64,000 nt of DNA from an uncultured Gemmatimonadales bacterium (GCA_963795085.1 CAWCFX010000004.1:431738-495737); one strand, 5' to 3'. Positions 30,512 through 64,000 are shown, counted from the first letter of the stretch. Notes: generated by a model not told the origin, from the letters alone. Numbers and translations: made by a program.

Positions 30512-33133
30512 TTGAGCCTGCCCGCCGGCCTCGTGACCGCCCTGGCCGACCGCTACCGCCTCGAGCGGGAGCTGGGGCAGGGCGGCATGGCCACCGTATA
30601 CCTCGCCGAGGACCTTCGGCACGACCGCAAGGTCGCGGTCAAGGTGCTGCGGCCGGACATTTCCGCCATCCTGGGCGGCGAGCGGTTCCTCGCCGAGATC
30701 AAGACCACGGCCAACCTGCAGCACCCGCACATCCTTCCGCTCCACGACTCGGGCGAGGCGGCGGGCATGGTGTACTACGTCATGCCCTATGTCCAGGGGG
30801 AAAGCCTGCGGGACCGTCTCGTCCGGGACCACCAGCTGCCGGTGGACGAGGCGGTCCGGATCGGCCGGGAGATCGCCGACGCGCTGCAGTACGCCCACGA
30901 GCACGGCATTGTCCACCGGGACATCAAGCCGGAGAACATCCTGCTCCACGGCGGCCACGCGATGGTGGCCGATTTCGGGATTGCGCTGGCCGCCAGCCGG
31001 AGCGACGGCGCGAGCCGGATGACCGAGACCGGCATGTCGCTGGGCACGCCCCACTACATGGCGCCCGAGCAGGCCATGGGTGAGCGCGAGATCACGCCGC
31101 GCTGCGACGTGTATGCCCTGGGCTGCGTGGTCTACGAGATGCTGGCCGGCGAGCCGCCTTTCACCGGGCCCACCGCGCAGGCGATCATCGCCCGGGTGAT
31201 GACCGAAGAGCCGCGGAGCCTGGCGATCCAGCGGCGGTCGGTGCCGGAGTACGTCGAGGCCGCGGTCAATCATGCGCTGGAGAAGCTGCCCGCCGACCGG
31301 TTTCCCACCGCCCGGGCCTTCGGCGAGGCGCTGGCCGGCCCGGTCACTGCCGCCGCAGGCTGGTCCCGCTCCTCCACCGCTGCCCGCCGGGTCGATCGGT
31401 CGTCTCCCTTGCGCCGGGGTCTTCCTTATCTATTAACCGCGCTGGGACTGCTGGCGGGTGTCCTGATCGGCAGTCGGCTGGGGGAGAAGGCGGCGCCGCC
31501 CCGACCGCTCCGGCTGGTGGTGCCCATCCCCGCCGAGACTCCGCCGGTGGCCATCCGGCTCTCGCCGGATGGAAGCACCCTCGCGTACATCAGCGGCCAG
31601 GGCGGGCGGCTGGCGATTTACGTCCGCCGGCTGGACGAGCTGGCGGCTCGCCGCCTCGAGGGAACCGAGGACGCGTTCACCCTCAGCTTCTCCCCCGACG
31701 GGGAATACATCGCCTTCATGGTGGGAACCACCGCCCGGCGAGTACCCGTGCGCGGCGGAGCGGCGGTGGGGATCCCGGTGCAGACCGCGGCGGGGACCGT
31801 CACCGCCGCCCTGGAGTACGCCGGTCCCGACCGGTTCGTCATGAGCACGCAGGACGGCCTGGTCAGGGTGGGGCCGAACGGCGAGCTGGAGCTGTTCGCC
31901 CGGCAGGATTCCGCGGCCGGCGAGTCCGCCCTCTCCCTCAACCAGGTCCTGCCCGATGGGTGGGTGCTGGGGCGGAGCTGGACTGAGCCGCCCTACGGAC
32001 CAATCCTCGCCTTCGATCCGGCCTCCGGAAAGCGGATCGTGATCGCCCCGGTCGTCGCGTCGTGGGCCGGATATGCCGACGGAGTCCTCGCCTGGACCCT
32101 GGCCGACGGGGCGCTCTATGCGGCGCCGTTCGATCTCGAGAACAAGCGGCTCGCCGGCCCTGCCCGCCCGGTCGGAGCCACGGTGCTCTCCGTACTCGGG
32201 TTCGTCCCACCGGTAACGATCGCGCCCGGCGGCCTGGCCTACGTTCCGACCCGCCCGCGATCCCTGGTGAAGATCTCCCGGGGTGGAGAGGTGACCCCCC
32301 TGCTCGAATCCGACCGGACCTACCACGACCCCCGGGTGTCCCCTGACGGGCGGCGAATCGCGCTGGACCTGACCGACCAGGAGCGCGATATCTGGCTCCT
32401 CGACATCGCCGATGCCACGCTGACCCGGTTCGGCTTCGATTCCGTGGCGCACGATGCCGAGTGGATGCCCGATGGACGGGGCCTCCTGTTCGCGGCCATC
32501 CGGGGCGGGAAGATCGGGGTCTTTCGGCGGCGGTTCGATTCGGGCGGCGCGGCGGACTCGGTCTTCGTCGGCCCCCAGCAGGTGACCATCCATACCTTGA
32601 CTGCCGACGGCCGCACCGGCATCGGCGTCTCGCTCGATGCCGGGAGTTTCGACATCGTGTCCATGGATCTCGCCGGGAACGACCCGACCCCTCGGCCCAT
32701 CCTCCAGTCCCGGTACTCCGAGGGCTGGCCCGCGCTCTCGCCGGACGGCCGGTGGCTGGCGTACCAGTCGGACGAGTCGGGACGGCAGGAGGTGTATATC
32801 CGGTCCTGGCCGGGCCTGGGGAACAAGGTCCAGGTGTCCCAGGGGGGCAGCGAGCCGGCCTGGTCGCCCGATGGGCGGGAACTGTTCTACCGGTCGGTGG
32901 GTGAGGGCCAGGAGTGGCTGGTCGCCGCCACGCTGGAGTGGGGCGACGTGCCGCGGGTCCGCTCCCGGGCCCGGCTCTTCGGCGTCGATAACATCGAGTT
33001 CGCCACCCCCCACCGGAATTACGACGTTTTTCCCGACGGCCGCTCCTTCGTGATGGTGCGCCAGGGGCAGCCGGACCAGCGGGCGGAGGTGGTGTACCTG
33101 CAAAATCTCCACCAGCTCGCCGGCACGCGATGA
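30512..33133 (+). CDS. Array kinase K1: Ser/Thr kinase-TM-PD40/TolB-like beta-propeller
   Basis: GQGGMATVY, HRDIKPEN, DFG, GTPHYMAPE, a TM segment and repeated SPDG motifs. TTG start. Confidence 0.93.
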   Translation: MSLPAGLVTALADRYRLERELGQGGMATVYLAEDLRHDRKVAVKVLRPDISAILGGERFLAEIKTTANLQHPHILPLHDSGEAAGMVYYVMPYVQGESLRDRLVRDHQLPVDEAVRIGREIADALQYAHEHGIVHRDIKPENILLHGGHAMVADFGIALAASRSDGASRMTETGMSLGTPHYMAPEQAMGEREITPRCDVYALGCVVYEMLAGEPPFTGPTAQAIIARVMTEEPRSLAIQRRSVPEYVEAAVNHALEKLPADRFPTARAFGEALAGPVTAAAGWSRSSTAARRVDRSSPLRRGLPYLLTALGLLAGVLIGSRLGEKAAPPRPLRLVVPIPAETPPVAIRLSPDGSTLAYISGQGGRLAIYVRRLDELAARRLEGTEDAFTLSFSPDGEYIAFMVGTTARRVPVRGGAAVGIPVQTAAGTVTAALEYAGPDRFVMSTQDGLVRVGPNGELELFARQDSAAGESALSLNQVLPDGWVLGRSWTEPPYGPILAFDPASGKRIVIAPVVASWAGYADGVLAWTLADGALYAAPFDLENKRLAGPARPVGATVLSVLGFVPPVTIAPGGLAYVPTRPRSLVKISRGGEVTPLLESDRTYHDPRVSPDGRRIALDLTDQERDIWLLDIADATLTRFGFDSVAHDAEWMPDGRGLLFAAIRGGKIGVFRRRFDSGGAADSVFVGPQQVTIHTLTADGRTGIGVSLDAGSFDIVSMDLAGNDPTPRPILQSRYSEGWPALSPDGRWLAYQSDESGRQEVYIRSWPGLGNKVQVSQGGSEPAWSPDGRELFYRSVGEGQEWLVAATLEWGDVPRVRSRARLFGVDNIEFATPHRNYDVFPDGRSFVMVRQGQPDQRAEVVYLQNLHQLAGTR

Positions 33134-33179
33134 CGTCCCGCCGCGGCACCGATAAGCTCCCCTCTCGACCGCGACTGGC

Positions 33180-33404
33180 ATGACGGTGGACGGGTCGCTC
33201 GCCGCCGCCTTGGCCGACCGCTACCGCATCGAGCGGGCCGCGACTCACGTCGCTGCTCGGCACGCCATCGCTTCGCGATTCCGCCTGTTCGAGAATCCTT
33301 CGGGCGGGAATTTCCGAAATAGATGGACTCACCAAGTGAAGTCGCTCCGCGACGTTGTGCCGAGCAGCGACGTAAATCGTGATTGCGGCGAGGTGGATGA
33401 ATGA
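33180..33404 (+). pseudogene. Kinase 5' stub A read through palindromic element copy 1 (74 aa ORF)
   Basis: MTVDGSLAAALADRYRIER followed by element-derived sequence. The stop overlaps the K2 start. Confidence 0.75.
33238..33382. mobile_element. Palindromic REPIN/MITE-like element, copy 1 (diverged)
   Basis: Arms CCGCGACTCACGTCGCTGCTCGGCAC and GTGCCGAGCAGCGACGTAAATCGTGA. Flanked by a perfect 27-bp direct repeat at 33211-33237 and 33432-33458. Mobility is inferred. Confidence 0.7.
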
Positions 33405-35719: not shown

Positions 35720-35720
35720 G

Positions 35721-38324
35721 ATGAGCGATCCGATGTCCCGCCTCGCGACCGGCCTGGCCGACCGTTACCGCGTCGAGCGGGAGTTGGGGCAGGGCGGCAT
35801 GGCCACCGTGTATCTCGCTGAAGATCTGAAGCACCGTCGCAACGTCGCGATCAAGGTGCTGCATCCCGATCTGGGCGCGGCACTCGGCGCGGAGCGCTTT
35901 CTCTCGGAGATCAGCACCACGGCTCGCCTGCAGCACCCGCACATCCTCCCACTGCTCGATAGCGGCGAGGCCGACGGCCTTCTCTACTATGTGATGCCGC
36001 TCGTCACCGGGGAGACCTTGCGCTCGCGGCTCGAGCGGGAACGGCAGCTGCCGGTCCAGGATGCAGTTCGCATCGCCCGCGAGGTGGCCGATGCCCTCGG
36101 CTGCGCTCACGCCCAGGGCGTCATCCATCGCGATATCAAGCCGGAGAACATCCTGCTCCAGGGGGGCCACGCGCTGGTCGCGGATTTCGGAATTGCCCTC
36201 GCCGTTCAGGAGGCGGGCGGGCAGCGACTGACGCAGACGGGACTCTCGCTCGGCACGCCGCAGTACATGTCACCCGAACAGGCGATGGGCGAGAAGCAGG
36301 TTGACCGGCGCAGTGATATCTACGCGCTCGGCGCTGTGACGTACGAGATGCTCATCGGGGAAGCGCCGTTCACCGGACCAACGGTGCAGTCTATTGTGGC
36401 CCGGATCATGACCGAAGAACCCCGTCACCTGGGAGTACAGAGAAAGGCAGTGCCTGGGCCGGTCGAGCATGCGGTGCTGCGCGCTCTCGAGAAGCTGCCC
36501 GCCGACCGGTGGGCGAGCGCGGAAGCCTTTGCCGCGGCACTCGAGGAGCAGCCTGGCCCGGCGCCGCGCGCGTCCGCTCCCCGGGCCATTGCGCCGGCAC
36601 CACGGGTCCGCCTGGTGATCGGGGTGGCCATCCTCGCGCTCGGTCTGCTTGCCGCCGCATGGTACGTAAGCCGGGCACCGGGCAACCCATCGGCTAAGCC
36701 CCGCATCGTGGTGTTACCGGCCGTGAATCTGGCCGGCGCGGAGCAGGCCTACCTCGCCGATGGTATCGCGGAGGAGATCAACAACCGGCTGGTGGGATTG
36801 ACCGGGGTCGAAGTCATTGGCCGCACCAGTGCCGAGCGATACCGGGGCACTCAGCTCACGCCGCGCCAGATCGGCGCCGAGCTCGACGCCAACTTCATCC
36901 TGGCGCTGCGCATCGGCATGGAGGGCCCGGCGGACGGCCAACGCATCAGGGTGAGTGCCGAGCTCCTCAATGCGGCAAACGAGACCCAGGTATGGGGGAA
37001 GACGTACCAGGCTCGGGCCACCGCGGACAACTTCGCGATGCAGGGTGAGATCGCCACCCAGGTGGCGGAGGAAATGGGTGTGACCCTGATCTCCGGAGAC
37101 AGCGCCCGAGTCGCGGAGCGTCCCACCGAGAACCAGGAAGCCTATGACGACTACCTCAGGGCCACTGGAATTCTCCGCGAGAAGAGCTCGATCACCCAGT
37201 TCTTCGATGCCGCCCGGTACCTGCAGCGCGCGGTGGACCGGGATCCCGGGTTCGCCCAGGCGTGGGCGGCCCTGGGATACGCGCACGCTGAGATCTACTG
37301 GTTCTGGGGCGACCACTCGGCGGCTCGCCAGGAGTTGGCCCGGGCTGCCGGCGAGCGTGCTCGCGCGCTGGCGCCGAATGCCGCCGAAACCCACTTCGCC
37401 CTCGGCGTGATCGCCTACCATGGACACCTCGATTTTCCCCGTGCCCTCGAGCATCTCAACGCCGCGATCGCCGCCAAGCCGGGCCAGGCCCGCTTCCTGG
37501 AGTTCGTCGCCTACGTCCAGCGGCGTTCAGGCGACCTGGAAGCGGCGCTGGCAAACGCCCGGCGGGCGCTCGCGCTTGATCCCCGGAACGTACGGATCCT
37601 GGGTGACGCCATGGGCCAGACGCTGGTGTACCTGGGACACTCAGCCGAAGCGCTGAGGTCTGCCGCCCGGGCGACCGATCTCGATCCCGAGGACTGGCAA
37701 CCGCACCATACCCTGATGCTGGCACACACGCAGATGGGAGATCTCGCCGGGGCAGAGGCCGCCGCCCGGGCCACCATGGTACGGCCGGGAGTGCAGGGCT
37801 TCCTGGTGGACCGGCCGAGGGACCTGGCCTGGGTCATAGGACGCCTTCCGCTGGAAGAGCAAGTCACCCTCGCGCACACCTATCCTCCTCTCAGTCCCGA
37901 GATATCTGACACGGCGATGTATTTCCTGGTACACGCGGAGATCCTGAGCAGCGCGGGACTCGACGGCCGAGTGAAATATGAACGTGCAGCCGAGCATATC
38001 GAGCGGCTCATTGCCAGCCAGCCGAATGAAGGTTGGTACTACGACCGCCTGGGCACGGCCTACCGGGGACTGGGGCGAGTGGATGAGGCCATTCGCGCGG
38101 GACGCCGGGCGGTCGAGCTGCTGGCACCGCTCGACCGATTTGAAGGACCCGAGGTCTCCCTCAACCTCGCCCAGAGTTACCTGGCTGCCGGGGACCAGGG
38201 GCAGGCCGCTGCACTGGCGCGGGCGTTCATCCGGTCTTTGCCGGGCAACCGGCTCCTTCTCAAGCACGATCCTCAATACGCCGCCTTACGCGATCTGCCC
38301 CAGGTGAGGGAGCTGCTGCGATGA
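35721..38324 (+). CDS. Array kinase K3: Ser/Thr kinase-TM-TolB-N-like domain-TPR
   Basis: ATG one nt after the K2 stop (MSDPMSRLATGLADRY), IVVLPAVNL...YLADGIAEEI, and TPRs. Confidence 0.93.
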   Translation: MSDPMSRLATGLADRYRVERELGQGGMATVYLAEDLKHRRNVAIKVLHPDLGAALGAERFLSEISTTARLQHPHILPLLDSGEADGLLYYVMPLVTGETLRSRLERERQLPVQDAVRIAREVADALGCAHAQGVIHRDIKPENILLQGGHALVADFGIALAVQEAGGQRLTQTGLSLGTPQYMSPEQAMGEKQVDRRSDIYALGAVTYEMLIGEAPFTGPTVQSIVARIMTEEPRHLGVQRKAVPGPVEHAVLRALEKLPADRWASAEAFAAALEEQPGPAPRASAPRAIAPAPRVRLVIGVAILALGLLAAAWYVSRAPGNPSAKPRIVVLPAVNLAGAEQAYLADGIAEEINNRLVGLTGVEVIGRTSAERYRGTQLTPRQIGAELDANFILALRIGMEGPADGQRIRVSAELLNAANETQVWGKTYQARATADNFAMQGEIATQVAEEMGVTLISGDSARVAERPTENQEAYDDYLRATGILREKSSITQFFDAARYLQRAVDRDPGFAQAWAALGYAHAEIYWFWGDHSAARQELARAAGERARALAPNAAETHFALGVIAYHGHLDFPRALEHLNAAIAAKPGQARFLEFVAYVQRRSGDLEAALANARRALALDPRNVRILGDAMGQTLVYLGHSAEALRSAARATDLDPEDWQPHHTLMLAHTQMGDLAGAEAAARATMVRPGVQGFLVDRPRDLAWVIGRLPLEEQVTLAHTYPPLSPEISDTAMYFLVHAEILSSAGLDGRVKYERAAEHIERLIASQPNEGWYYDRLGTAYRGLGRVDEAIRAGRRAVELLAPLDRFEGPEVSLNLAQSYLAAGDQGQAAALARAFIRSLPGNRLLLKHDPQYAALRDLPQVRELLR

Positions 38325-41035
38325 GCGGTGCTCTGGACCGACTGTCATCCGCCCTCGCCGAGCGCTACCGTATCGAGCAGGAACTCGGCGCCGGCGGCAT
38401 GGCCACCGTGTACCTGGCCCACGATGTCCGCCACGACCGCAAGGTCGCCATCAAGGTCCTCCGCCCCGAGCTGGCCGCGGTGATCGGCGCCGAGCGCTTC
38501 CTCCGAGAGATCAAGACGGTCGCCAACCTGCAGCATCCCCACATCCTCGGCCTGATCGACTCCGGCGAGGTAAACGGCACCGCCTATTACGTCATGCCCT
38601 TCGTCGAGGGCGAGTCGCTCCGCGACCGGCTGAGCCGGGAGAAACAGTTGCCGGTCCCCCTCGCCGTCCGCTGGGCCAGCGAGATCGCGGCGGCGCTCGA
38701 CTACGCTCACCGCCACGGCGTGATCCATCGGGACATCAAGCCGGAGAACATCCTGCTCCACGACGGCTCGGCGCTCGTCGCCGACTTCGGCATCGCGCTG
38801 GCGGTGACCTCCGTCGGCGGGAGCCGGATGACCGAGACCGGGATGTCCCTGGGCACCCCCCACTACATGAGCCCCGAGCAGGCGATGGGGGAGCGGGAGA
38901 TCGGCCCGGCCAGCGATGTCTATGCCCTTGGCGCGGTGACCTTCGAAATGCTGGCCGGCGAGCCACCTTTCACCGGTCCTACCGCCCAGGCCATCGTTGC
39001 CCGGGTGATGACCGCGGAGCCGCCCGACCTGGCATCATTGCGGAAGACAGTGCCGGAGCACGTCGCGGCAGCAGTTGATACCGCGCTACAGAAGCTTCCC
39101 GCCGACCGGTTTCCCACCGCGACCGCATTTGCCCAGGCGCTGGGAGCCCCGGGGCCCACGACCGGCCGGCGGGTGCGCGCGGTGGTCGGCCCGGTCCGCC
39201 GGTCGGTCCCGCTTTTCCTTGCCATCGGGCTCGCCGCGCTCGCGCTGGTGCTGGGCGGACTGGCGGCCGTGCTGGCCTTGGGCGCCAGGCGCGGAGACCC
39301 AGTCGGGGTCCGGGTGGCCGCCCGGCTTCCCGCCGGCCAGGAATTCCTCGCCGGTCGGGCCCTCGGCGTGGCAATTCCTCCCGACGGCTCCGGCGTCCTT
39401 TATCTGGGGCCCGGCGTCGGCCGGCGGCTGCAGTACTGGTTCCGCCAATGGGACCGGATCGGCGCCGAGCGGCTGACCCGCTCGGTCGATGAAGGGTGCT
39501 GCGCCAGCTACTCTCCCTCCGGCGACACGATCGCGTACCTCTCTGCCCCCCGCTCACTCAACCTGCTCCCGCTCAACGGCGGGCAGGCGACCACGCTGTC
39601 CGATTCCGGGTTGCTTTCGGTGACCGACTGGTGGGCCGGCCTCGACTGGTCGAAGGATGGCTGGCTCTACGCCGGCGGCTCCGAAGGCCTGCTCAGGATT
39701 GATCCCCGAACCGGGGCCCGCGAGATCGTGGCCCGGCACGACTCGGCCCGTGGCGACCTGGCCTTCCTCTGGCCCCAGGTACTGCCGGGGGGCAAGGGCG
39801 CGGTGGTGACGGTAGTCGGGCGACAGGCTCCGATCGATCCCGAGCGCGCCTCGATCGGGATCGTCGATTTCAGCACGGGACGGGTCCGGGTGATCCAGCA
39901 GGGCATCCGTGCGATTTACGCTTCCACGGGGCACCTGCTCGTAGTCAAGCCCAACGGCGTGCTCTGGGCGGTGCCCTTCGACCCGGGGTCCTTCGACGTG
40001 CGGGGGACCGAGCGCGAGTTGCGCGATACGCTCGCGGTCCGCACCGGGAGCGCCGGCCCGGGCACCGTCGATCTCGCGCTGGACCGCCACGGAACCCTGG
40101 TCTACGTGGCGGGCGGCATCGAGTCGTTCCGGGCGGTCATGGTCGATCGTTCCGGCGCCGTGCGCCCCCTGTCCGATGATGTCGCCGCCCTCCTGCTGGA
40201 CAGCCCCGCCCTTTCGTCCGACGGCCGCCGGCTGGCGATCGGGATGCGCGCCGAGGACCGCACGTCCCAGATCTGGGTCCATGCCATGGGCGATGGCGCC
40301 ATGGGCCGGTTGACCTTCGACGGTCTCCTGAACATTCGGCCGCGCTGGCGTCCGGGAACCGGCACCCTGAGCTACCTTGGCTTTGCCGGGATCGGCAAGA
40401 TCGACTTCCACGTGTTCGAGCGCGACGCCGGCGGACGGGGCGGCGTGCGCCGGATCTTCACGGGCGACCCGCGAAGCGTGGGGTCCCACGCCTGGTCGCC
40501 CGACGGACGGTGGCTGATTTTCCGGACCGACGACCAGGCCGCCGGCAACGGCGACATTCTCGCCATCCGTCCCGGGGTGGACACCGTGCCCCGCGCCCTG
40601 GTGGCCACCCCCGCCGAGGAAATGGGCCCGGCCGTATCTCCGGATGGCCGGTGGCTGGCGTATACCTCCAATGAAACCGGCCGCCGGGAGGTGTACGTCC
40701 GTCCCTTCCCCGCGACCGACGAGGCGCGCTTCCTGATCTCGCCCAGCGGCGGCATGACCCCGGTCTGGGCCCGGAACGGGCGAGAGCTGTTCTACCTGGA
40801 CGCGTCCGGCAACATGGTCGCCGTCCCGGTCGAAGGCGGCGACTCGTTTCGCTCCGGCTCGCCCGAGGTCCTGTTCCCGGCGACCCAATATTTCACGATG
40901 CCCTACCATCCGCAGTATGACGTGACGCCCGATGGCCAGCGCTTCGTGATGCTGAGCGCCCGGTCGGAAAACCTCGGGCTGGTCCTGGTGACCGGATTTC
41001 TTGCCGACCTGGAGCGACGGATGGAAACACAATGA
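38321..41035 (+). CDS. Array kinase K4: Ser/Thr kinase-TM-PD40/TolB-like beta-propeller
   Basis: Kinase motifs, TM, and SPDGRWLAYTSNETGRREVYVRPFP. Confidence 0.93.
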   Translation: MSGALDRLSSALAERYRIEQELGAGGMATVYLAHDVRHDRKVAIKVLRPELAAVIGAERFLREIKTVANLQHPHILGLIDSGEVNGTAYYVMPFVEGESLRDRLSREKQLPVPLAVRWASEIAAALDYAHRHGVIHRDIKPENILLHDGSALVADFGIALAVTSVGGSRMTETGMSLGTPHYMSPEQAMGEREIGPASDVYALGAVTFEMLAGEPPFTGPTAQAIVARVMTAEPPDLASLRKTVPEHVAAAVDTALQKLPADRFPTATAFAQALGAPGPTTGRRVRAVVGPVRRSVPLFLAIGLAALALVLGGLAAVLALGARRGDPVGVRVAARLPAGQEFLAGRALGVAIPPDGSGVLYLGPGVGRRLQYWFRQWDRIGAERLTRSVDEGCCASYSPSGDTIAYLSAPRSLNLLPLNGGQATTLSDSGLLSVTDWWAGLDWSKDGWLYAGGSEGLLRIDPRTGAREIVARHDSARGDLAFLWPQVLPGGKGAVVTVVGRQAPIDPERASIGIVDFSTGRVRVIQQGIRAIYASTGHLLVVKPNGVLWAVPFDPGSFDVRGTERELRDTLAVRTGSAGPGTVDLALDRHGTLVYVAGGIESFRAVMVDRSGAVRPLSDDVAALLLDSPALSSDGRRLAIGMRAEDRTSQIWVHAMGDGAMGRLTFDGLLNIRPRWRPGTGTLSYLGFAGIGKIDFHVFERDAGGRGGVRRIFTGDPRSVGSHAWSPDGRWLIFRTDDQAAGNGDILAIRPGVDTVPRALVATPAEEMGPAVSPDGRWLAYTSNETGRREVYVRPFPATDEARFLISPSGGMTPVWARNGRELFYLDASGNMVAVPVEGGDSFRSGSPEVLFPATQYFTMPYHPQYDVTPDGQRFVMLSARSENLGLVLVTGFLADLERRMETQ

Positions 41036-42231: not shown

Positions 42232-42292
42232 CGGGCGGGCGCGGAATGGCCCCCTGTCAGTCCACCGCCCTGGCGGTGCCGAACGGCGAAAT

Positions 42293-42321
42293 TTGACAAT
42301 GTGACCATATATGGTCATAAT
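42293..42321 (+). promoter_or_regulatory. Sigma70 promoter with overlapping palindromic operator for the TA operon
   Basis: TTGACA (42293-42298), 17 bp, CATAAT (42316-42321). Perfect 16-bp palindrome TGACCATATATGGTCA at 42302-42317. Confidence 0.85.
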
Positions 42322-42327
42322 GAGGCC

Positions 42328-42597
42328 ATGAAAACCCGAGCGGAAAAGCAGGTCAAGGTCGCCGAGCTGAAGGCTCGGCTCAGCGCGTATCTCAAGGCCG
42401 TCCGCCGGGGGGAACCGGTCACCGTCTGCGACCGGGATACCCCGATCGCCCGGCTGGTGCCCTACCGGCCAGCGGGTGAACCGCTCGCCGTCCGGGAGCC
42501 GGTGCGTGCGCTGGACGCCGTCACCCTGCCCGCGCCGCTGAAGCGCCCGGTGGACAGCCTGGCGGTTCTGCTCGAGGGACGGCAGCCATCACGGTGA
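42328..42597 (+). CDS. Phd/YefM-family antitoxin
   Basis: VKVAELKARLSAYLKAVRRGEPVTVCDRDTPIARLVP; upstream of and overlapping a PIN-domain gene. Confidence 0.92.
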   Translation: MKTRAEKQVKVAELKARLSAYLKAVRRGEPVTVCDRDTPIARLVPYRPAGEPLAVREPVRALDAVTLPAPLKRPVDSLAVLLEGRQPSR

Positions 42598-43013: not shown

Positions 43014-43044
43014 CCATCCTGCGACGAATCTCGCCGGAGGCGCC

Positions 43045-45654
<2,610 letters not shown>

Positions 45655-51291: not shown

Positions 51292-51292
<1 letters not shown>

Positions 51293-51507
51293 TGGTTCCC
51301 CCGGCTCTCGCCACCACCCTGGCCGATCGCTACCGCCTCGAACAGGCCGCGACTTACGTCGCTGCTCGGCACGGCGTCGCTTCGCGACTGCAGCGAGAAC
51401 ATTCTGCTCCGGCAAGACTGCAATCAACCTGTCATGGACCCAGGCGCACCAACTCGCGCAGCGATGGTGTGCCGAGCCGCGACGGAAGTCGCGGGAATAG
51501 GCAATGA
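51292..51507 (+). pseudogene. Kinase 5' stub C read through palindromic element copy 3 (71 aa ORF)
   Basis: GTG start overlapping the K7 TAG; MVPPALATTLADRYRLEQ followed by AATYVAAR...; the stop overlaps the K8 ATG. Confidence 0.75.
51347..51494. mobile_element. Palindromic REPIN/MITE-like element, copy 3
   Basis: Near-identical to copy 2. Arms at 51347-51372 and 51469-51494. Direct repeat matches at 26/30 bp (51317-51346 and 51535-51564). Confidence 0.75.
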
Positions 51508-56113: not shown

Positions 56114-58764
56114 GCGTGGTTCCTTCCCGTCTGGCCGAGGCTCTTAGCCGTAGCTACCGGATCGAGCGGGAGCTCGGCGCTGGCGGCATGGCCACGGTAT
56201 ACCTGGCGCAGGACCTGAAGCACGACCGGAAGGTGGCCATCAAGGTACTCCGGCCCGAGCTGGCTGCCGTCATCGGGGCGGATCGGTTTCTCTCCGAGAT
56301 CAAGACCACGGCCAACCTGCAGCACCCGCATATCCTGCCGCTGCACGATTCGGGAGCGGCCGATTCTTTCCTGTATTACGTCATGCCGTTCATCGAGGGC
56401 GAGTCCCTCCGCGACCGGCTTACCCGGGAGAAACAGCTCCCGGTGAACGACGCGGTCCGGATCGCCACCGAGGTGGCGGGAGCCCTGGATTACGCCCATC
56501 GTCACAACGTCATCCACCGCGACATCAAGCCCGAGAACATCCTGCTCCACGACGGCCGGGCCCTGGTGGCAGACTTCGGGATCGCCCTGGCCGCGAGCAA
56601 GGCCGGCGGCACCCGGATGACCGAGACCGGGATGTCGCTGGGGACGCCGCACTACATGAGTCCCGAGCAAGCGATGGGCGAGCGGGAGATTACCGCGCGC
56701 TCCGACGTCTACGCCCTCGGCGCCGTCACCTACGAGCTGCTGCTGGGGGAGCCGCCCTTCACGGGACCCACCGCCCAGGCCATCGTCGCCAAGGTGATGA
56801 CCGCCGAGCCGGTGACCATCACCGGCCAGCGAAGAACGGTCCCCCCGCATGTAGAGGCGGCGGTGTTCACCGCACTGGAGAAGCTTCCGGCGGACCGGTT
56901 TGCCAGCGCGGCCGAGTTTGCCCAGGCGCTGGCCGGTGGGGTGAGCACGACCACTCGCACCGGCTCTCGCGGTGCCCCCAGGTCAAAGGCGAGCGCCGGT
57001 CCCTGGCGCGCGATCAGCGCGGCACTCGGTGCGGTGCTCCTGGCTCTCCTCGGCATCGTCGGCTGGAACATGACCCACCGCTCCTCCGCCGGGGGACCCA
57101 GCGTCTACGATGCGGCGCTCCCGGTCGACGCTCCCATGACCTTCGCCTTCACCGCAGCGGCGAATACGTATGGGACTCCGCTTCGGAATCTTTCGGTCGC
57201 GAGGAACGGGGATTTCGCGGTGTACGTCGCCCCGCGAGGCGACTCCACCGTGCTGTGGTACCGCAGCCTCCGGGATGCCACCGTCCGGCCCATCCCCGGA
57301 ACCGTCGGGGCCACGGCACCACGGATCTCTCCCGACGGGAACCGGGTTGCCTACTTCGTCGGCGGAATGGTGATGGTGTCCCCCGTCGCCGGTGGAGAGG
57401 CCAGGCGGCTCTTCACCGGGCAGGCGGGGTCGGCCCTCAACTGGCTGTCCGGGGATACCCTGCTCGCCCTGCACCAGGACGGGACCCGCATCGTCTGGCT
57501 CGATCCCGAGGCTGGCCCGATCAAGGAGGGGTCGATGCAGACCCGCTGCCCCTTCGGCCGATGGATCGCCGAACGAAGGGCATTGTTGTGCGACTGGAAT
57601 ATCGTTTCCTACTATGTCGATCCCGAGACCGGTATGCGGAGCAACGACCTGCGGATCCGGGGGGCGGGCGGTCGGGCGGGTGCGCTCCTTCACGGCAGCA
57701 GTGCACGGGTTATTGACGGGCGCTACCTGGTCTACCTCGCGGCAGACGGAGACCTTCGCGCCGCACCGTACGATATTGAAACCGACCTGGTGGGGCGCTC
57801 GGTCTCGCTGGTGCGGGGGATCCGGCGCGAGGGGGTAGGCGAGGGCCAATTCGAGGTCACCAGCGAAGGCGCCCTGGTCTATGCGCCAGGCAAGGACGCG
57901 ACGGTGGGTCGCCTCGTTCGCCTCCGGGCCGGCGGCGTTCCGGAACCCCTGCCGGTGCCGGAGGCAACCTATCAGCGCTATGATCTCAGCCCGGACGGGC
58001 GCTGGCTTGCCGCCGCGGTCCTAGCGGCCGCGGGGCAGGAGCTCCGAGTCTACGATCTTCGGGATGGCCAGCAGCAGATTTGGCTCCGCGCCGACCTGAT
58101 CCGGCATCCGCTCTGGGGACCGGCGGGGGGTGACCTCGTCGTGAGCGTGCGGGACTCCAACCGGTGGTCGCTGCTTGCCGGATCGCTGACCCTGGGCCGA
58201 CTGAAGGACACCCTGTTCACCACCGATTCAGCCAACGCCCTCGACGCGGTCGATTTCCACTCCGCCGACGATATCATCCTCCAGCACTGGGAACGGTCGG
58301 CCGTCTTTCGCCTGAACCCCCAGGCCCCGAACGGCGGACCCCGCCCCATCTTCAACGAAGACGCCCGGTTTGCTTCGGTGTCTCCCGATGGGAAGCACCT
58401 GGCATATCAGACAACGGAGGGCAACCGGATCATGATCACGTCGTATCCGGTAGCGGGACGACGGTGGCAGGCGGCAACGGAAGGGGCTGAGCCATTCTGG
58501 CTTTCGTCGAACACGGTCATTTATCGCTCCGGCATCTCGTGGTATCAGGTGCGAATCGACCCGGTGACTGGTGAGCCCAGCGGGCCCGGCACGCTCTGGG
58601 CCCGGGATCCCCGGTTCTCCGATACCTCCGGCTGGTCCAACCGGCCGTCGCATGACGGCGGGATCATCTACGTCCAGGCGCCGGCGGAAACCAGCGCGGG
58701 CTACCTTCGGGTGATTCCCGACTGGGTGACCCAGATGAAGGCCGCCGTGGACGCGGCGAACTGA
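56110..58764 (+). CDS. Array kinase K10: Ser/Thr kinase-TM-PD40/TolB-like beta-propeller
   Basis: Kinase motifs, TM and SPDG repeats; ATGA overlap with K9. Confidence 0.93.
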   Translation: MSVVPSRLAEALSRSYRIERELGAGGMATVYLAQDLKHDRKVAIKVLRPELAAVIGADRFLSEIKTTANLQHPHILPLHDSGAADSFLYYVMPFIEGESLRDRLTREKQLPVNDAVRIATEVAGALDYAHRHNVIHRDIKPENILLHDGRALVADFGIALAASKAGGTRMTETGMSLGTPHYMSPEQAMGEREITARSDVYALGAVTYELLLGEPPFTGPTAQAIVAKVMTAEPVTITGQRRTVPPHVEAAVFTALEKLPADRFASAAEFAQALAGGVSTTTRTGSRGAPRSKASAGPWRAISAALGAVLLALLGIVGWNMTHRSSAGGPSVYDAALPVDAPMTFAFTAAANTYGTPLRNLSVARNGDFAVYVAPRGDSTVLWYRSLRDATVRPIPGTVGATAPRISPDGNRVAYFVGGMVMVSPVAGGEARRLFTGQAGSALNWLSGDTLLALHQDGTRIVWLDPEAGPIKEGSMQTRCPFGRWIAERRALLCDWNIVSYYVDPETGMRSNDLRIRGAGGRAGALLHGSSARVIDGRYLVYLAADGDLRAAPYDIETDLVGRSVSLVRGIRREGVGEGQFEVTSEGALVYAPGKDATVGRLVRLRAGGVPEPLPVPEATYQRYDLSPDGRWLAAAVLAAAGQELRVYDLRDGQQQIWLRADLIRHPLWGPAGGDLVVSVRDSNRWSLLAGSLTLGRLKDTLFTTDSANALDAVDFHSADDIILQHWERSAVFRLNPQAPNGGPRPIFNEDARFASVSPDGKHLAYQTTEGNRIMITSYPVAGRRWQAATEGAEPFWLSSNTVIYRSGISWYQVRIDPVTGEPSGPGTLWARDPRFSDTSGWSNRPSHDGGIIYVQAPAETSAGYLRVIPDWVTQMKAAVDAAN

Positions 58765-58769
58765 GCGCC

Positions 58770-59504
58770 TTACTCCAGCACCAGGCCGATATCAAACACG
58801 CCCCGATACCCGGCCCCGTCGCGCTGGACATCCAGCACCAGCTCCGCCCCCCGCTCCCGGCGGAAGATGCCGTCACCCGGGTTCCGGGTCCGCGGCTGGC
58901 GGTTGCCGGCGTAGGGCGTGGCGGCAAGGACCTGGTCGGATGCCGTGTCGTCGAAGTAGAGCTGGGAAGTGAAATCGTAGCCCCGCTGCCCGGCCGGGTC
59001 GGTCCGGAGCTTGAAGTGAATGTGCACCGTGCGACCCTGGTACCAACCCGGGTAAATCGTCCGGAAGGCGGCCCGCCCGTCGGCCCCGGTCCGCTGGTGT
59101 CCCCGAAGGAACTGTTGCCCAGTGGTGTCGAAGAACCCGTTAATATCCTTCACACCCGAGTACACCCCCGCGGCATCACACTGCCAGACGTCCACCAGGA
59201 CGCCGGGCAGAGGTGCGCAGGTCGTTCCACTGATCCGGGACACCTGGAAGGCCAGCGCCAGCGGGACACCCTCCGGGATCCTTCCACTGGCCGGGTCGGC
59301 CCGGATGTCCGACCGGTCGAGCATGGTGTCCACGAAGTAGGGCCCCTCGGTCTGCGCCGGCCGGACGACGCATGCCGGCAGCTTCCCGCCCGGAGGCCGG
59401 ACCAGCGCACCCCCGGGGATCGCGGCACAGGCCAGCGCGCCGAGGGAGGCGAGGACTTCACGGCGGCTCAGGACCTGGCCAATGGGGCGGTCGTCGTCGA
59501 GCAT
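58770..59504 (-). CDS. Intradiol ring-cleavage dioxygenase-like protein with Tat signal
   Basis: SRREVL twin-arginine motif; EGPYF, VWQCDAAGVYS, TIYPGWYQGRTVHIH and TSQLYF. Confidence 0.9.
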   Translation of the reverse strand: MLDDDRPIGQVLSRREVLASLGALACAAIPGGALVRPPGGKLPACVVRPAQTEGPYFVDTMLDRSDIRADPASGRIPEGVPLALAFQVSRISGTTCAPLPGVLVDVWQCDAAGVYSGVKDINGFFDTTGQQFLRGHQRTGADGRAAFRTIYPGWYQGRTVHIHFKLRTDPAGQRGYDFTSQLYFDDTASDQVLAATPYAGNRQPRTRNPGDGIFRRERGAELVLDVQRDGAGYRGVFDIGLVLE

Positions 59505-59623
59505 GAGTTCTCCGGCCAGAGTAAGGGGAGGACTGCTACTCCCAAGGTAAGGTTCGCCGTCGCTCTGCGCATCTCGCACCTCTAAGGAGACCGGATGTCC
59601 CCCGATCTTTTGCCGGACCAGCC

Positions 59624-62233
59624 ATGACCACGGCGCTTGCCCAGGCGCTGGGCGACCGCTACCGGCTGGAGCGGAAGGTGGGCGAGGGCGGCATGGCCAC
59701 GGTCTATCTCGCCCAGGACCTCAGGCACGACCGCCGGGTCGCCATCAAGGTGCTGCGTCCCGAGCTGGCCGCCGTCATCGGCGCGCAGCGGTTCCTCTCC
59801 GAAATCAAGACGACCGCGAACCTGCAGCACCCCCACATCCTGGCGCTGCACGATTCCGGAGAAGCCAGCGGCACGGTGTTCTATGTCATGCCGTACGTCC
59901 AGGGCGAATCGCTGCGCGACCGGCTGTCGCGGGAGCACCAGCTGCCCGTGGATGAGGCCGTCCGCATCGCGCGGGAAGTCGCCGACGCGCTGGACTACGC
60001 CCACCGGCATGGGGTGATCCACCGCGACATCAAACCCGAAAACGTCCTGCTCCACGATGGCCGGGTGCAGGTGGCGGATTTCGGAATTGCGCTGGCGGTG
60101 AGCCGCTCCGACGGCGGCTCCCGGATGACCGAGACCGGCATGAGCCTCGGTACGCCGCACTACATGGCGCCGGAGCAGGCCATGGGCGAGCGCGACATAA
60201 CGCCCAAGGCCGATATCTATGCGCTCGGCTGCATGACCTACGAGATGCTGTGCGGCGAGCCGCCGTTCACCGGCCCCACGGCCCAGGCCATCATCGCCCG
60301 GATGATGACCGAAGAACCGCGCCCGCTCACCATACAGCGCAAGTCGATTCCGCCCCACGTGGAAGCCGCGGTCCGCACGGCACTGGAGAAGCTGCCGGCC
60401 GACCGGATGTCATCGGCCGCCGAGTTCGGCGCGGCGTTGGTGAATCCGGGGTATGTCACCCGGTCCGGCACCGGGGCCCGCAATGCCGTGACGATCCATG
60501 GCCGCGCCCGCGCCGGCCGGCCCTCCGTGATCGCGGTCGTTGCAGCCGTACTGCTGGGCGTGGGGGGGCTGATCGCCGGGCGCTGGCTGGGGCAGCCTCA
60601 TCCCGGCCCGCTTCCCGAAGTCCGGTTCACCCTGGCACTTCCCGACACGGCGCGCTACGTGGACACCTTCGGCCGCTCCGTGGCGGTCTCTCCGGACGGT
60701 CGTCTCCTGGTGTACACCGGCGGAACCGAGGGCCTGCACCGGCTCTTTGCCCGCCGGCTGGACGAGCAGGTGCCGGCCGCGCTCGCCGGGACCGAGGGCG
60801 GATACATGCCGTTCTTCTCTCCTGATGGCGAGTGGGTCGGCTTCGTCGCCAACCAGCGGCTGATGAAGGTTCGCCTCTCGGGCGGCGTCCCGGTGGTGGT
60901 GGCGCAGCTGCTGGGCAACGTCGTCGCGGGAGCGACCTGGGGCATCCACGACGATATTGTCCTGGAGGATGTCTCGGGGCTGGTCCGGGTCAAGGCGGCC
61001 GGCGGCCGGCTCGACATGCTGGTTCCCATCGATTCGCAGAACCTGCTCATCGAATGGCCCAGCTTCCTGCCCGATGGCGAGGCCATCCTGTGTGCCGTCA
61101 GCGGAACCGATACCAGGACGCGAATCGGCGTGATCACCGTGGCCGACGGCAAGGTCTCGGTCTTCGAGGATATCACGGGGAGCGATCCCCGCTTTGTCGC
61201 TCCGGGAACGGTGATGTGGTTGTCGCCCGAGGGCGTGATGCTGGCGGCGGCGTTCGACCCGAAACGCCGCACCTTCAGCGGCCCGCCATCGCCGGTCATG
61301 GAGAACGTGGTCGAAGACTTCCGGGGCGCCAAGGTCGCCCTGGGACCCGGGATCGCCGTGCGGGTCGAGGGCACGTCGCAGCGGGCCCAGATGCTCCGCT
61401 TCGGGCGGGACGGCACCGGGCGCCGCAACGAGATGCGGGGCGCACAGAACTACACGACGCCGCGCTTCTCGCCCGATGGCCGCCGGGTCGCGTTCGTGAG
61501 CAACTTCCTCGGGGGCGAGCTCTGGGTGGCCGACCGGTCCCGGGGCACCCTGCAGCGCCTGGCGCTCGCCGGGCAGGCGATCGGGCCTGAATGGTCGCGC
61601 GATGGACGGCGCCTCGTGTTCGGATATATGACGCGCGCGAGCTCCAGCTGGGATATTCACGCGATGTCCGCCGATGGATCGGGCTCGGCGGAACCGCTCA
61701 TCCAGACGCCGGAGACCGAGTTCCCGGCTGGCTGGGGCGCGGACGGGAGCCTCGCGTTCTGGCGATCCACCCTGAACCGCGGGGACATTCTCTACCGCGA
61801 CAGCGGGGGAACGGAGCATCCCTTTGCCAACTCGCCCGCGGATGAACGATCCCCGGTGCTCTCGCCCGACGGCCGCTGGCTGGCCTATGTCTCGGATGAG
61901 TCGGGCCGGCGCGAGGTGTACGTCCGCCCGTTCCCGGCCGGTCCGGGGCGGTGGCAGGTTTCCAGCGAGGGCGGCATCGAGCCACGCTGGTCCAGGGGCG
62001 GGCGGGAAATCATCTATCGCGACCGCGGCTGGCTCCTCGCGGTCTCGCTGACCCCTGGTCCGGACCTGGTGGTCGGGCGGGTCGACTCGCTCTTTCGCGG
62101 CGCCTTCGCGATCAGCGGAGTCCGGGCCCAGTATGACGTGAGCGGCGATGGCGCGGAGTTCCTGATGGTGGGGGTGCCGCCGGAATCGCGTACCCTCAGC
62201 GTCACGCTCAATCCGGGGGGCCTGCCGCGATGA
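59624..62233 (+). CDS. Array kinase K11: Ser/Thr kinase-TM-PD40/TolB-like beta-propeller
   Basis: Kinase motifs, TM and SPDGRWLAYVSDESGRREVYVRPFP. Confidence 0.93.
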   Translation: MTTALAQALGDRYRLERKVGEGGMATVYLAQDLRHDRRVAIKVLRPELAAVIGAQRFLSEIKTTANLQHPHILALHDSGEASGTVFYVMPYVQGESLRDRLSREHQLPVDEAVRIAREVADALDYAHRHGVIHRDIKPENVLLHDGRVQVADFGIALAVSRSDGGSRMTETGMSLGTPHYMAPEQAMGERDITPKADIYALGCMTYEMLCGEPPFTGPTAQAIIARMMTEEPRPLTIQRKSIPPHVEAAVRTALEKLPADRMSSAAEFGAALVNPGYVTRSGTGARNAVTIHGRARAGRPSVIAVVAAVLLGVGGLIAGRWLGQPHPGPLPEVRFTLALPDTARYVDTFGRSVAVSPDGRLLVYTGGTEGLHRLFARRLDEQVPAALAGTEGGYMPFFSPDGEWVGFVANQRLMKVRLSGGVPVVVAQLLGNVVAGATWGIHDDIVLEDVSGLVRVKAAGGRLDMLVPIDSQNLLIEWPSFLPDGEAILCAVSGTDTRTRIGVITVADGKVSVFEDITGSDPRFVAPGTVMWLSPEGVMLAAAFDPKRRTFSGPPSPVMENVVEDFRGAKVALGPGIAVRVEGTSQRAQMLRFGRDGTGRRNEMRGAQNYTTPRFSPDGRRVAFVSNFLGGELWVADRSRGTLQRLALAGQAIGPEWSRDGRRLVFGYMTRASSSWDIHAMSADGSGSAEPLIQTPETEFPAGWGADGSLAFWRSTLNRGDILYRDSGGTEHPFANSPADERSPVLSPDGRWLAYVSDESGRREVYVRPFPAGPGRWQVSSEGGIEPRWSRGGREIIYRDRGWLLAVSLTPGPDLVVGRVDSLFRGAFAISGVRAQYDVSGDGAEFLMVGVPPESRTLSVTLNPGGLPR

Positions 62234-62270
62234 CCCGGCGCATCGTGCCCCCGGGCCTCGGAACCGGGCG

Positions 62271-64000
62271 ATGACGGCGCCCATGGAGGGGCTCGCCGCC
62301 GCGCTCGCCGACCGCTACCGGCTGGAGCGGGAGGTGGGCAAGGGCGGCATGGCCACGGTCTATCTCGCCCAGGACCTCAAGCATCACCGCCGGGTCGCCA
62401 TCAAGGTGCTCCATCCTCAGCTGGCCGCGTCGGTCGGGGGCGACCGGTTTCTCGCCGAGATCCGCACCACGGCAAACCTGCAGCACCCGCATATCCTCCC
62501 CCTGTTCGACAGCGGGCGCGTCACCCTGGCAGCGCCTCCCCACGGGGCGGAGGGCGAAATACTGTACTACGTCATGCCCTTCATCGAGGGCGAATCGCTC
62601 CGGGACCGGCTCACCCGGGAGAAACAGCTCCCCCTCGAGGACTCCCTGCAGATCATGCGGGAGGTTGCCGATGCGCTCGACTACGCCCACCGGGCCGGGG
62701 TAGTGCATCGCGACATCAAGCCGGAGAACATCATGCTGAGCGGCGGGCATGCCATCGTCGCCGATTTCGGCATCGCCCGCGCCGTCGGCGACGAGCACTC
62801 GACCCGGCTGACCCAGACCGGCGCGGTGGTCGGCACCCCCGCCTACCTGAGCCCCGAGCAGGTCACCGGCGAGCCGCTCGACGGCCGGAGCGACCTCTAC
62901 AGCCTCGGCTGCGTGCTCTATGAATGCCTGACCGGCGAGATTCCCTTTGCCGGCCCGGCGATGTCCACCATGGCGCAGCGGGTGGTGGCACCACCCCCAT
63001 CGGTCAGGGCCAGGCGGACCGAGACGCCGTCCCAGGTCGACCAGCTGGTGGCGCGGGCAATGGCCACCCAGGCGACCGATCGCTTTTCCACCGGCCGCGA
63101 GATGGTCGCCGCACTCGTCGCCCCCCGGCGGGAAAGCCGGCGCGATGGCCGCCAGGCCATGGTCGTCCTGCCTTTCGCCAACCAGAGCCCCGACCCGGAG
63201 AACGAGTACTTCAGCGACGGCCTGACCGAAGAGATCATCAGCGCGCTCTCCGGCATCAAGTCGCTCTCCGTGATTTCCCGGACATCGGCGATGCAGCTGA
63301 AAGGGACCACCAGGGATGTCCGGACCATCGGGCGTGACCTGGGCGTGCAGTACGTGCTCGAAGGCAGCGTCCGCAAGGCGGGGAACTCGCTCCGGATCAC
63401 GACCCGGCTGATCGACGCCGCGAGCGATGCGCAACTCTGGGGGGACAAGTACGGCGGGACCATGGACGACGTGTTCGAAGTCCAGGAGCGGGTGGCCCGG
63501 GAGATCGTCAAGGCGCTCGGCATATCGCTGACCAGCGACGAAGACCAGCGCCTGGCCCGCCGGGCGATCGAGCATCCCCAGGCGTTCGAGTGGTATCTCC
63601 AGGCCCGCGTCGAGTTCCGCCGCTACGGCTCGTCCATCGACCACGGCATGGCGCTGCTCGACCGGGCCATTGCCATCGAGGGCCAGACTCCACCGCTCCG
63701 CGCGCTGGCCGCCTGGGCCCAGGTGTCCCTGGTCCGTTCCGGGCACGCCGCAGGCCGCGGCGGGCTGGATGAAGCCGAAGCGGTCGCCCGTGCCCTGATC
63801 GAGGAAGCTCCCGAGGCTCCCTATGGCCATGCCCTGCTGGGGTTCATTGCCTATGAGCGAAGCCGGGCAGCGGATGCGGTGCGGCACCTCCTGGCGGCGC
63901 TCGAGCGCGAGCCCAACGACGCCGACAACATGTTCTACCTGGTCGTGTCTTACATCGCCGCGGGGCAGGAGTTCCGGGCCGTAGATGCGGCGGCACGCCT
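62271..64000 (+). CDS. Array kinase K12 (partial): Ser/Thr kinase-TolB-N-like domain-TPR, no TM seen
   Basis: Manual translation: MTAPMEGLAAALADRYRLEREVGKGGMATVY, HRDIKPEN, VVLPFANQSPDPENEYFSDGLTEEII. It is open to the window end, so it is absent from the ORF track. Confidence 0.92.
   Translation, partial: MTAPMEGLAAALADRYRLEREVGKGGMATVYLAQDLKHHRRVAIKVLHPQLAASVGGDRFLAEIRTTANLQHPHILPLFDSGRVTLAAPPHGAEGEILYYVMPFIEGESLRDRLTREKQLPLEDSLQIMREVADALDYAHRAGVVHRDIKPENIMLSGGHAIVADFGIARAVGDEHSTRLTQTGAVVGTPAYLSPEQVTGEPLDGRSDLYSLGCVLYECLTGEIPFAGPAMSTMAQRVVAPPPSVRARRTETPSQVDQLVARAMATQATDRFSTGREMVAALVAPRRESRRDGRQAMVVLPFANQSPDPENEYFSDGLTEEIISALSGIKSLSVISRTSAMQLKGTTRDVRTIGRDLGVQYVLEGSVRKAGNSLRITTRLIDAASDAQLWGDKYGGTMDDVFEVQERVAREIVKALGISLTSDEDQRLARRAIEHPQAFEWYLQARVEFRRYGSSIDHGMALLDRAIAIEGQTPPLRALAAWAQVSLVRSGHAAGRGGLDEAEAVARALIEEAPEAPYGHALLGFIAYERSRAADAVRHLLAALEREPNDADNMFYLVVSYIAAGQEFRAVDAAAR

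Follow-up and report, generated by a model that had tools for sequence, protein, structure and literature searches.

The repeats of PknD, a receptor kinase of Mycobacterium tuberculosis, are NHL repeats. In the excerpt consulted here, PknD is described as the structural paradigm of propeller-sensor kinases, with a single six-bladed propeller, and PD40 is named as one of the domains to which prokaryotic kinases are most frequently tethered (PMC2877116). We have analysed an array of kinase genes in an uncultured Gemmatimonadales bacterium, which lies in a stretch of 64,000 nt (GCA_963795085.1, CAWCFX010000004.1:431738-495737; G000:C4:431738-495737 in our numbering), hereafter called the window. 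All positions are those of the whole window, and the array was followed past its end. Most products of the array are predicted to resemble PknD in having an N-terminal cytoplasmic Hanks kinase, a single transmembrane segment and an extracytoplasmic beta-propeller, which in PknD is thought to bind ligands (PMC2877116, same excerpt). However, they are not PknD orthologues, and their sensors measure ~560 aa, match two-propeller proteins, carry PD40 and Tricorn_N labels and belong to an array of 13 genes.

Lineage-specific expansions of kinases are known from Myxobacteria and Planctomycetota, where adjacent duplicates and species-specific clades have been attributed to 'duplication and/or recombination' (PMC11032199 as excerpted, citing Perez et al. 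2008). The likeness extends to the many kinases per genome, their membrane-spanning architecture and their periplasmic repeat sensors, which are TPR and WD40 in those groups (PMC11032199, same excerpt). Here, in contrast, the host belongs to the Gemmatimonadota, a small genome of 3.9 Mb with 53 kinases holds one array of 13 genes with PD40/Tricorn-like sensors, and what appears to be reassortment of kinases and sensors can be read directly from orthologue comparisons. Plant receptor-like kinases offer a further parallel, given that they form tandem arrays with a conserved kinase, variable ectodomains and species-specific content, shaped by unequal crossing-over or gene conversion and by birth-and-death. 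Our array has in common with these clusters the tandem arrangement, the conserved kinase with a variable ectodomain, the species-specific content and, probably, crossing-over or conversion; however, its origin is independent, its sensors adopt another fold, and its kinase domain is N-terminal rather than C-terminal as in plants. In the literature searched, no paper on kinase arrays in Gemmatimonadota was found, and a preprint presenting a bacterial kinase atlas mentions none of the terms Gemmatimon-, PD40, TolB and propeller. Tandem expansion of receptor kinases is already established as a phenomenon, and we regard the present finding as solid and as unsurprising to a specialist. In soil, Gemmatimonadota are abundant, and hardly any of their signalling biology has been studied by experiment; the array provides a compact natural 'same kinase, different sensor' set for asking what periplasmic PD40/Tricorn-like propellers sense.

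The kinase array is real and consists of 13 paralogous Hanks-type Ser/Thr kinase genes arranged head-to-tail over 36.7 kb. We consider it likely that, as a whole, it represents an old, still-remodelled tandem array of receptor-type kinases whose halves have been swapped by recombination. Open reading frame (ORF) listing, translation and Pfam searches identified 12 plus-strand genes with an N-terminal Pkinase domain between 30512 and 64000 (K1 to K12), in line with the original prediction, made from the sequence alone, of at least 12 co-oriented kinase genes running off the end of the window. Indeed, K12 is cut at 64000 and its full gene stops at 64532, and a thirteenth gene, K13, follows outside the window and ends 3.2 kb beyond it. 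The contig carries no other kinase gene for more than 160 kb past K13, and we therefore delimit the array at these 13 genes. The predicted sensor counts of eight, three and one were recovered as well, with PD40 sensors in K1, K4, K5, K6, K7, K9, K10 and K11, TPR sensors in K2, K3 and K12, and a hydrolase-like domain in K8; with K13 as the ninth PD40 type, the array comprises nine PD40/Tricorn-like tandem beta-propeller genes, three TPR genes and one alpha/beta-hydrolase gene. Its genes are as follows (TM, transmembrane).

30512-33133, plus strand: K1, kinase, TM-like segment (at aa 303) and PD40 tandem propeller; 873 aa, TTG start; Pkinase 171 bits, PD40 96 bits
33401-35719, plus strand: K2, kinase, TM-like segment, FlgO-like (sub-threshold, 19.9 bits) and TPR; 772 aa; Pkinase 150 bits, several TPR families
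35721-38324, plus strand: K3, kinase, TM-like segment and TPR (Pfam); 867 aa; begins 1 nt past the K2 end
38321-41035, plus strand: K4, kinase, TM-like segment and PD40 tandem propeller (Pfam, sensor model); 904 aa; 4-nt overlap with K3
41032-42231, plus strand: SBP56-like (selenium-binding-protein family) putative lipoprotein; Pfam SBP56 36.9 bits, cut-off 34; 4-nt overlap with K4
42328-42597, plus strand: Phd/YefM-like antitoxin ORF, 89 aa; Pfam PF02604 28.8 bits, just below the cut-off of 29.8
42594-43013, plus strand: PIN-domain (VapC-like) toxin ORF, 139 aa; Pfam PIN 42.6 bits, cut-off 23.6; 4-nt overlap with the antitoxin ORF
43045-45654, plus strand: K5, kinase, TM-like segment and PD40 sensor of a second deep subfamily; 869 aa; Pfam, kinase tree (outside the array clade), sensor tree
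45748-48432, plus strand: K6, putatively chimeric kinase, TM-like segment and PD40; 894 aa; kinase/sensor identity mismatch
48650-51292, plus strand: K7, kinase, TM-like segment and PD40 (Pfam); 880 aa
51504-53336, plus strand: K8, predicted soluble kinase with alpha/beta-hydrolase domain (model, Foldseek), without TM-like segment; 610 aa
53393-56113, plus strand: K9, kinase, TM-like segment and PD40; 906 aa; sensor 63% identical to K4
56110-58764, plus strand: K10, kinase, TM-like segment and PD40 (Pfam); 884 aa; 4-nt overlap with K9
59624-62233, plus strand: K11, kinase, TM-like segment and PD40 (Pfam); 869 aa
62271-64000 in the window (full end 64532), plus strand: K12, kinase, FlgO-like (sub-threshold) and TPR, without TM-like segment; 753 aa
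64529-67201 in extended window coordinates (L001:529-3201), plus strand: K13, kinase, TM-like segment and PD40; 890 aa; outside the window; 4-nt overlap with K12

Start and stop codons overlap by 4 nt at K3/K4, K4/SBP56, K9/K10 and K12/K13, and intergenic gaps of 211-859 nt precede K2, K5, K7, K8 and K11. The array is interrupted twice, by the SBP56-like gene and by the Phd-like/PIN pair (42328-43013). A second SBP56-like copy, 41% identical, is found at C1:1350208-1351380. The host metagenome-assembled genome (MAG) measures 3.89 Mb in 6 contigs, with 67% G+C and 93% completeness, and encodes 53 kinase domains in total, 11 of which have a full propeller sensor (9/11 inside the array). The array takes up ~1% of the DNA and is large for so small a genome.

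The kinase parts are highly uniform. All 13 match Pkinase (PF00069) with 150-184 bits (Pfam cut-off 31.7) and have an intact Gly-rich loop, VAIK Lys, alpha-C Glu, HRD, DFG and APE-like [SA]PEQ motif, so that the earlier claim of intact catalytic K, HRD and DFG motifs applies to 13/13, K13 included. By domain score and motifs, all 13 are Hanks-type Ser/Thr kinases with a putative phosphotransfer activity. A hydrophobic 19-aa window at aa 285-303 is present in 11/13 (Kyte-Doolittle mean 1.7-2.6), and the topology suggested by this segment would make these proteins bitopic receptor kinases. K8 (Kyte-Doolittle 1.15) and K12 (1.04) carry no TM-like segment and are presumably soluble kinases. After the kinase part, the sequences diverge as abruptly as had been noted at the outset: K6 and K7 are 90-100% identical per 30-aa window over aa 31-270 (73% in the first window) and 30-50% identical thereafter. 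No FHA or PP2C gene is located inside the array; the genome has seven FHA matches on ~4 ORFs, FHA proteins at C1:529043-530179 and C6:30638-34173 among them, and three PP2C phosphatases.

Structure predictions, proposed earlier as a check on the sensor domains, returned a propeller for the K4 sensor and an alpha/beta hydrolase for the C-terminal domain of K8. The AlphaFold model of the K4 sensor (25 aligned sequences) is all-beta with a C-terminal helix (predicted local distance difference test, pLDDT, 87; predicted template-modelling score, pTM, 0.86) and matches propeller proteins with a Foldseek probability of 1.0, the whole length aligning with two-propeller proteins such as Aip1, LRP6 and megalin. 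From the ~44 strands of the model, we infer approximately six blades per propeller. K4 is the one propeller sensor that was modelled, and the other eight were judged by alignment with it; all nine align collinearly over ~550 aa, which argues that the propeller genes are whole-gene duplicates and not unrelated cassettes. Kinase-propeller architecture is very common: a profile of the propeller sensor matched 85,904 cluster representatives (E <= 1e-30) among 1.84 billion proteins, and many of the best 150 matches are 860-910 aa long and are matched at approximately 350-890. The nearest clusters in a protein atlas are mostly from Acidobacteriota and Gemmatimonadota.

These sensors resemble TolB and the N-terminal propeller of Tricorn in their PD40 repeats, in the alignment of one propeller of the K4 model to TolB (~320-365 columns; template-modelling score normalised to TolB 0.45-0.50) and in the precomputed Pfam labels PF26549 and PF26550 on their homologues, the former being named Tricorn_N by the protein atlas. 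However, the propeller-type genes have no Pfam match to TolB_N, no protease domain was found, and their neighbours are kinases rather than a Tol-Pal cluster; moreover, the sensor is fused via a TM segment to a kinase. Pfam gave no match to the NHL family on these sensors at E <= 0.01 or 0.001, and PD40 was found instead. The TPR group had been predicted to carry TolB-N domains, a label that did not hold: FlgO was matched below threshold instead (19.9 and 21.9 bits, cut-off 22.6), and a phmmer search of the PDB with the K2 sensor retrieved TPR proteins only and no TolB-N-like chain.

For K8, the model of the C-terminal domain (pLDDT 91) matches alpha/beta hydrolases with a Foldseek probability of 1.0 and finds at least 500 matches in the PDB (E <= 0.001), headed by esterases, dehalogenases and lipases (template-modelling score 0.48-0.59). 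As modelled, this domain has the alpha/beta-hydrolase fold. Among 120 homologues of the C-terminal part, 35 were aligned (38-88% identical), and in this alignment G126 of the elbow is invariant, with F127 and S128 conserved in 90% or more of the rows; the elbow reads GFSSG in the family consensus and GFSTA in K8 itself. H296 is likewise invariant, as are D258 and D275, the candidates for the acid. It is possible that these residues form an active Ser-His-acid triad.

Kinases and sensors have diverged to very different degrees. In a tree of all 53 kinase domains of the genome, 11/13 array kinases fall into one clade (Shimodaira-Hasegawa-like approximate likelihood-ratio test, SH-aLRT, 94), ten of which form a starred clade (97); the K5 kinase groups with a kinase 270 kb distant, and the K12 kinase was placed in no resolved group. 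Kinase identity is 66-94% inside the 11-member clade and 54-63% for K5 and K12. Identity among propeller sensors is 26-37%, K4 and K9 (63%) excepted. Non-synonymous divergence (dN) of the kinases is 0.03-0.43 and synonymous divergence (dS) 0.67-1.45 for all pairs but K6-K7 (0.44); given a third-position G+C of 80-90%, we take the corresponding proportion of synonymous differences (pS, 0.44-0.64) to be at or near saturation. Since synonymous sites are saturated for nearly all pairs, the duplications appear to be old. Separate trees and dN/dS estimates for the two halves had been suggested, and they fared differently: the trees disagree, as described below, whereas sensor dN/dS is uninformative because sensor dS (0.94-1.93) is saturated, and for the same reason no evidence of diversifying selection was obtained. 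Orthologues of the K6 sensor comprise ~25 clusters at 51-87% identity, followed by a drop to <=44%, and those of the K7 sensor at least 502 clusters at E <= 1e-100 (53-68% identical among the matches listed). The sensors therefore look like conserved orthologous lineages, neither hypervariable nor unusually fast-evolving.

Saturated synonymous sites, together with a kinase dN far below that of the sensors and the several 4-nt gene overlaps, would also suit a static ancient operon, in which stronger purifying selection keeps the kinase constant and neither recombination nor turnover takes place. We consider this explanation improbable, and the first observation against it comes from K6. The K6 and K7 kinases are 94% identical and their sensors 34%. 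Against P0122, its nearest sensor orthologue, K6 shows 87% identity in the sensor and 74% in the kinase, whereas constraint alone would leave the kinase as the more conserved half; along the length, identity is 63-87% before ~aa 300 and 87-93% beyond, with the switch at about aa 270-300. Across 11 K6 orthologues, sensor and kinase identity are uncoupled, the most distant sensor (51%) being joined to the most similar kinase (87%). We infer that K6 is a chimera, in which a K7-like kinase has been placed on a sensor of different history. Ten of the at least 502 K7-sensor orthologues were examined, and K7 is the likelier donor to K6 because six of these carry a K6/K7-type kinase (82-90%). The other four (P0241, P0245, P0324 and P0339) have a K3-type kinase, 78-84% identical to K3, and given that this kinase type sits on a TPR sensor in our array, reassortment seems to cross sensor classes in the wider family.

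Tree comparisons point in the same direction. On a kinase tree of 48 rows (array, relatives and hydrolase-type homologues), approximately unbiased (AU) tests rejected monophyly of the 12 hydrolase-type kinases (log-likelihood difference 92, p = 0.0017) and of the 25 propeller-type kinases (difference 192, p = 1e-5), and on a sensor tree of 28 rows the kinase clade K6+K7+G002C155_5647 was rejected (p = 0.0006). Groupings congruent between the domains, as a static operon would require, are rejected by these tests, and as far as sequence comparison can show it, the kinase and sensor halves have different histories.

At the DNA level, K9 and K10 are 89-97% identical over codons 31-180 only (90-nt windows); past codon 180, the best partner switches to K8 for K9 and to K7/K6 for K10. 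Likewise, K6 and K7 are 90-99% identical in most windows from codon 31, but identity falls to 76% at codons 121-150, a stretch in which K8 is the closest match of K7, and to 83% at codons 151-180. A test for silent-site runs over 259 polymorphic third positions detected a K9-K10 run of 27 sites (global p 0.007). We read the kinase-coding DNA as a mosaic of tracts shared with neighbours, and its partner switches are a further point against the static operon. Together with the K6 chimera, this mosaic would show concretely an exchange of input and output modules that the literature searched suggests in general terms only (PMC11032199, as excerpted).

Related genomes reveal how the array changes over time. 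Using the SBP56-like gene as a marker for related loci, we found its orthologue embedded in kinase arrays in two genomes of the same genus (G004 and G002) and outside any array in G019, from the same order. Among 40 named related loci, many of them short, one has an array (that of G004), eight have a single kinase match and 31 have none; in the loci examined, the SBP56-like gene is inside kinase arrays only in this genus. The same-genus contigs are listed below, their kinase counts all being limited by contig ends.

G004:C37, 17.5 kb: 7 kinase ORFs
G004:C5, 19.1 kb: 7 kinase ORFs
G004:C72, 21.9 kb: 5 kinase ORFs
G002:C44, 16.8 kb: 4 co-oriented kinase ORFs and 1 on the opposite strand
G002:C155, 8.6 kb: 4 kinase ORFs

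Five of the 29 sensors in these two genomes are at least 50% identical to any of K1-K13, matching K10 (71% and 51%), K9/K4 (61%), K12 (64%) and K13 (56%); the remainder reach 25-38%. On contig C5 of G004, four other kinase genes separate the K12 and K13 orthologues, and on contig C44 of G002 the K10 orthologue stands directly before the SBP56 gene, in the position held by K4 in our genome. K6 orthologues on metagenome contigs (L056-L058, L060 and L062) have different kinase neighbours or none. The comparison of array content and order suggested by the original prediction therefore speaks against a static operon, as both differ within the genus and around K6 orthologues. Kinase counts among 30 relatives, a set that includes the unpublished G018, on which none of our conclusions depends, range from 14 to at least 58, and two family-level genomes with 56 (G012) and 66 kinases (G017) show same-strand runs of at most three and two, respectively, as judged by eye on contigs of limited length.

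The same comparisons bear on a technical explanation, namely that the array or the K6 chimera arose from collapsed or mis-joined repeats in a metagenome bin. The host genome is indeed a MAG of six contigs, 93% complete, and the kinase DNA of neighbours is up to 92-99% identical in 90-nt windows. However, no exact match shared by two array genes exceeds 69 nt, every gene is distinct, full length and intact in frame, many independent assemblies contain full-length orthologues of K6, K7 and K8 that share their architecture, and two further genomes of the genus contain arrays. Given the short longest match, the intact frames and the orthologues in independent assemblies, an artefact is very unlikely.

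We therefore favour an origin of the array by old tandem duplications within a very large Gemmatimonadota/Acidobacteriota family of kinase-propeller receptors, which gene gain and loss would keep remodelling. Through homologous recombination or gene conversion, acting on the conserved 5' part that encodes the kinase, kinases and sensors would have acquired their separate histories, and related species would hold different sensor sets as a consequence. Under this scenario, whole-gene duplication, gain and loss, and recombination of the kinase part together explain the pattern of 'constant kinase, variable sensor'. In the receptor layout, an N-terminal kinase would lie in the cytoplasm and be joined by a linker of ~35-40 aa to one TM helix, with the sensor (a propeller in nine proteins, TPR in two) outside the cytoplasm. 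By analogy with PknD-type kinases, ligand binding to the ectodomain may change oligomerisation, followed by trans-autophosphorylation of the conserved Thr-rich activation loop and phosphorylation of cytoplasmic targets. The receptor repertoire that had been proposed from the sequence is borne out to the extent that a conserved kinase and diverse sensors were found; the common phosphorylation output that it was proposed to feed is hypothetical.

Several points weigh against this scenario. The signalling steps would follow from analogy only. The trees are 'quick' searches, and the groups in the AU tests, defined by an independent trait (architecture), were named after the first tree had been viewed; the clade K4+K9+G002C44_770 was not rejected on the kinase tree (p 0.09). 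Other pairs have runs in the same region as the K11-K12 silent-site run of 22 sites (p 0.04), which may for this reason reflect low diversity. Mantel tests detected no fall in kinase identity as genes lie further apart in the array (p 0.25 and 0.11), a non-significant result that would suit a static operon; exchange appears to be local in some blocks, with no general gradient along the array. Finally, the sensors of the relatives were compared with K1-K13 and not with the other 40 kinases of the genome, and the contigs of the relatives (8-22 kb) come from short-read MAGs, where joins within repeated kinase DNA could be wrong.

A more ambitious reading, which strikes us as rather unlikely, assigns a function to the shared DNA. 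The highly conserved kinase-coding 5' segment would act as a homology handle, at which unequal crossing-over and gene conversion re-pair sensors with kinase and promoter contexts and add or delete whole receptors, yielding in each Gemmatimonadales species a selected repertoire of its own, like that of plant clusters. The propellers would be putative sensors for, e.g., peptides or envelope fragments of neighbours. If true, the array would be a bacterial counterpart of plant receptor-kinase clusters, kept by selection rather than chance.

The original prediction had also raised cassette-wise assembly. A dedicated system, in which a site-specific recombinase shuffles sensor-kinase cassettes as in an integron or shufflon, could account for one constant and several variable parts, and the toxin-antitoxin pair within the array would be compatible with it, as would a hairpin repeat that precedes three genes:

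33170-33400, plus strand: repeated leader before K2, in which the 5' coding end of the kinase is copied ahead of a long hairpin
48433-48649, plus strand: repeated leader before K7, sharing 92% identity over 188 nt with that of K8; minimum free energy -110 kcal/mol, z = -3.2
51293-51503, plus strand: repeated leader upstream of K8; same repeat as before K2 and K7

The three leaders have ~190 nt in common, in which ~40 nt copied from the 5' coding end of the kinase lead into a hairpin (arms of ~41 nt); the K7 and K8 copies are more alike than the coding DNA of the two genes, and one partial copy is located at C4:773560-773605. However, the repeat stands before only 3/13 genes and was not found in the fetched loci of relatives, every gene has its own start and intact motifs, and the propeller sensors are collinear. 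In addition, Pfam detected no integrase, transposase or invertase in the ORFs tested from 30 kb upstream to ~20 kb downstream, which includes the region beyond 64 kb where the original prediction had advised looking for an integrase (several small or unassigned ORFs were unscanned), and there is no tRNA in the window. Cassette-wise assembly by a dedicated machine thus finds little in its favour, and we consider it highly improbable. Candidate explanations of the leader repeat are an attenuator, a small repeat element and a scar left by unequal crossing-over; an Rfam search of the array region gave no credible family, with a single match at E 0.17. Searches with K1-K13 (tblastn) found no kinase remnant in the gaps at 42232-43044 and 58765-59623, and the 12-19-aa N-terminal kinase stubs that they detected in the gaps before K2 and K8 are part of the repeated leader. 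The 859-nt gap between K10 and K11 (58765-59623) contains no gene that could be assigned and is crossed only by long ORFs of doubtful coding quality, and a near-consensus promoter-like site is present at 42293-42321, before the Phd/YefM-like ORF.

Outside the array, the genes are of ordinary kinds: the downstream flank encodes a BNR protein, a beta-lactamase-family protein and a GGDEF regulator, and the upstream flank multicopper oxidases, a glutamate symporter, Lon and a giant gene resembling cyclic glucan synthases. The multicopper oxidase paralogues (24659-26932 and 28516-30393, plus strand) lie just upstream of the array, with the sodium/glutamate symporter gene between them. The giant gene (15071-23833, minus strand; 2921 aa) combines GT2, glucoamylase-like and GH94 domains, which we take to be the architecture of cyclic beta-1,2-glucan synthases. 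An unrelated Ser/Thr kinase (643 aa, Pkinase 179 bits) is encoded at 7697-9628 on the minus strand, 21 kb upstream of the array, and a kinase of identical profile score is found upstream of the array in G002, a hint that the flanks are conserved and the interval is shorter in that genome.

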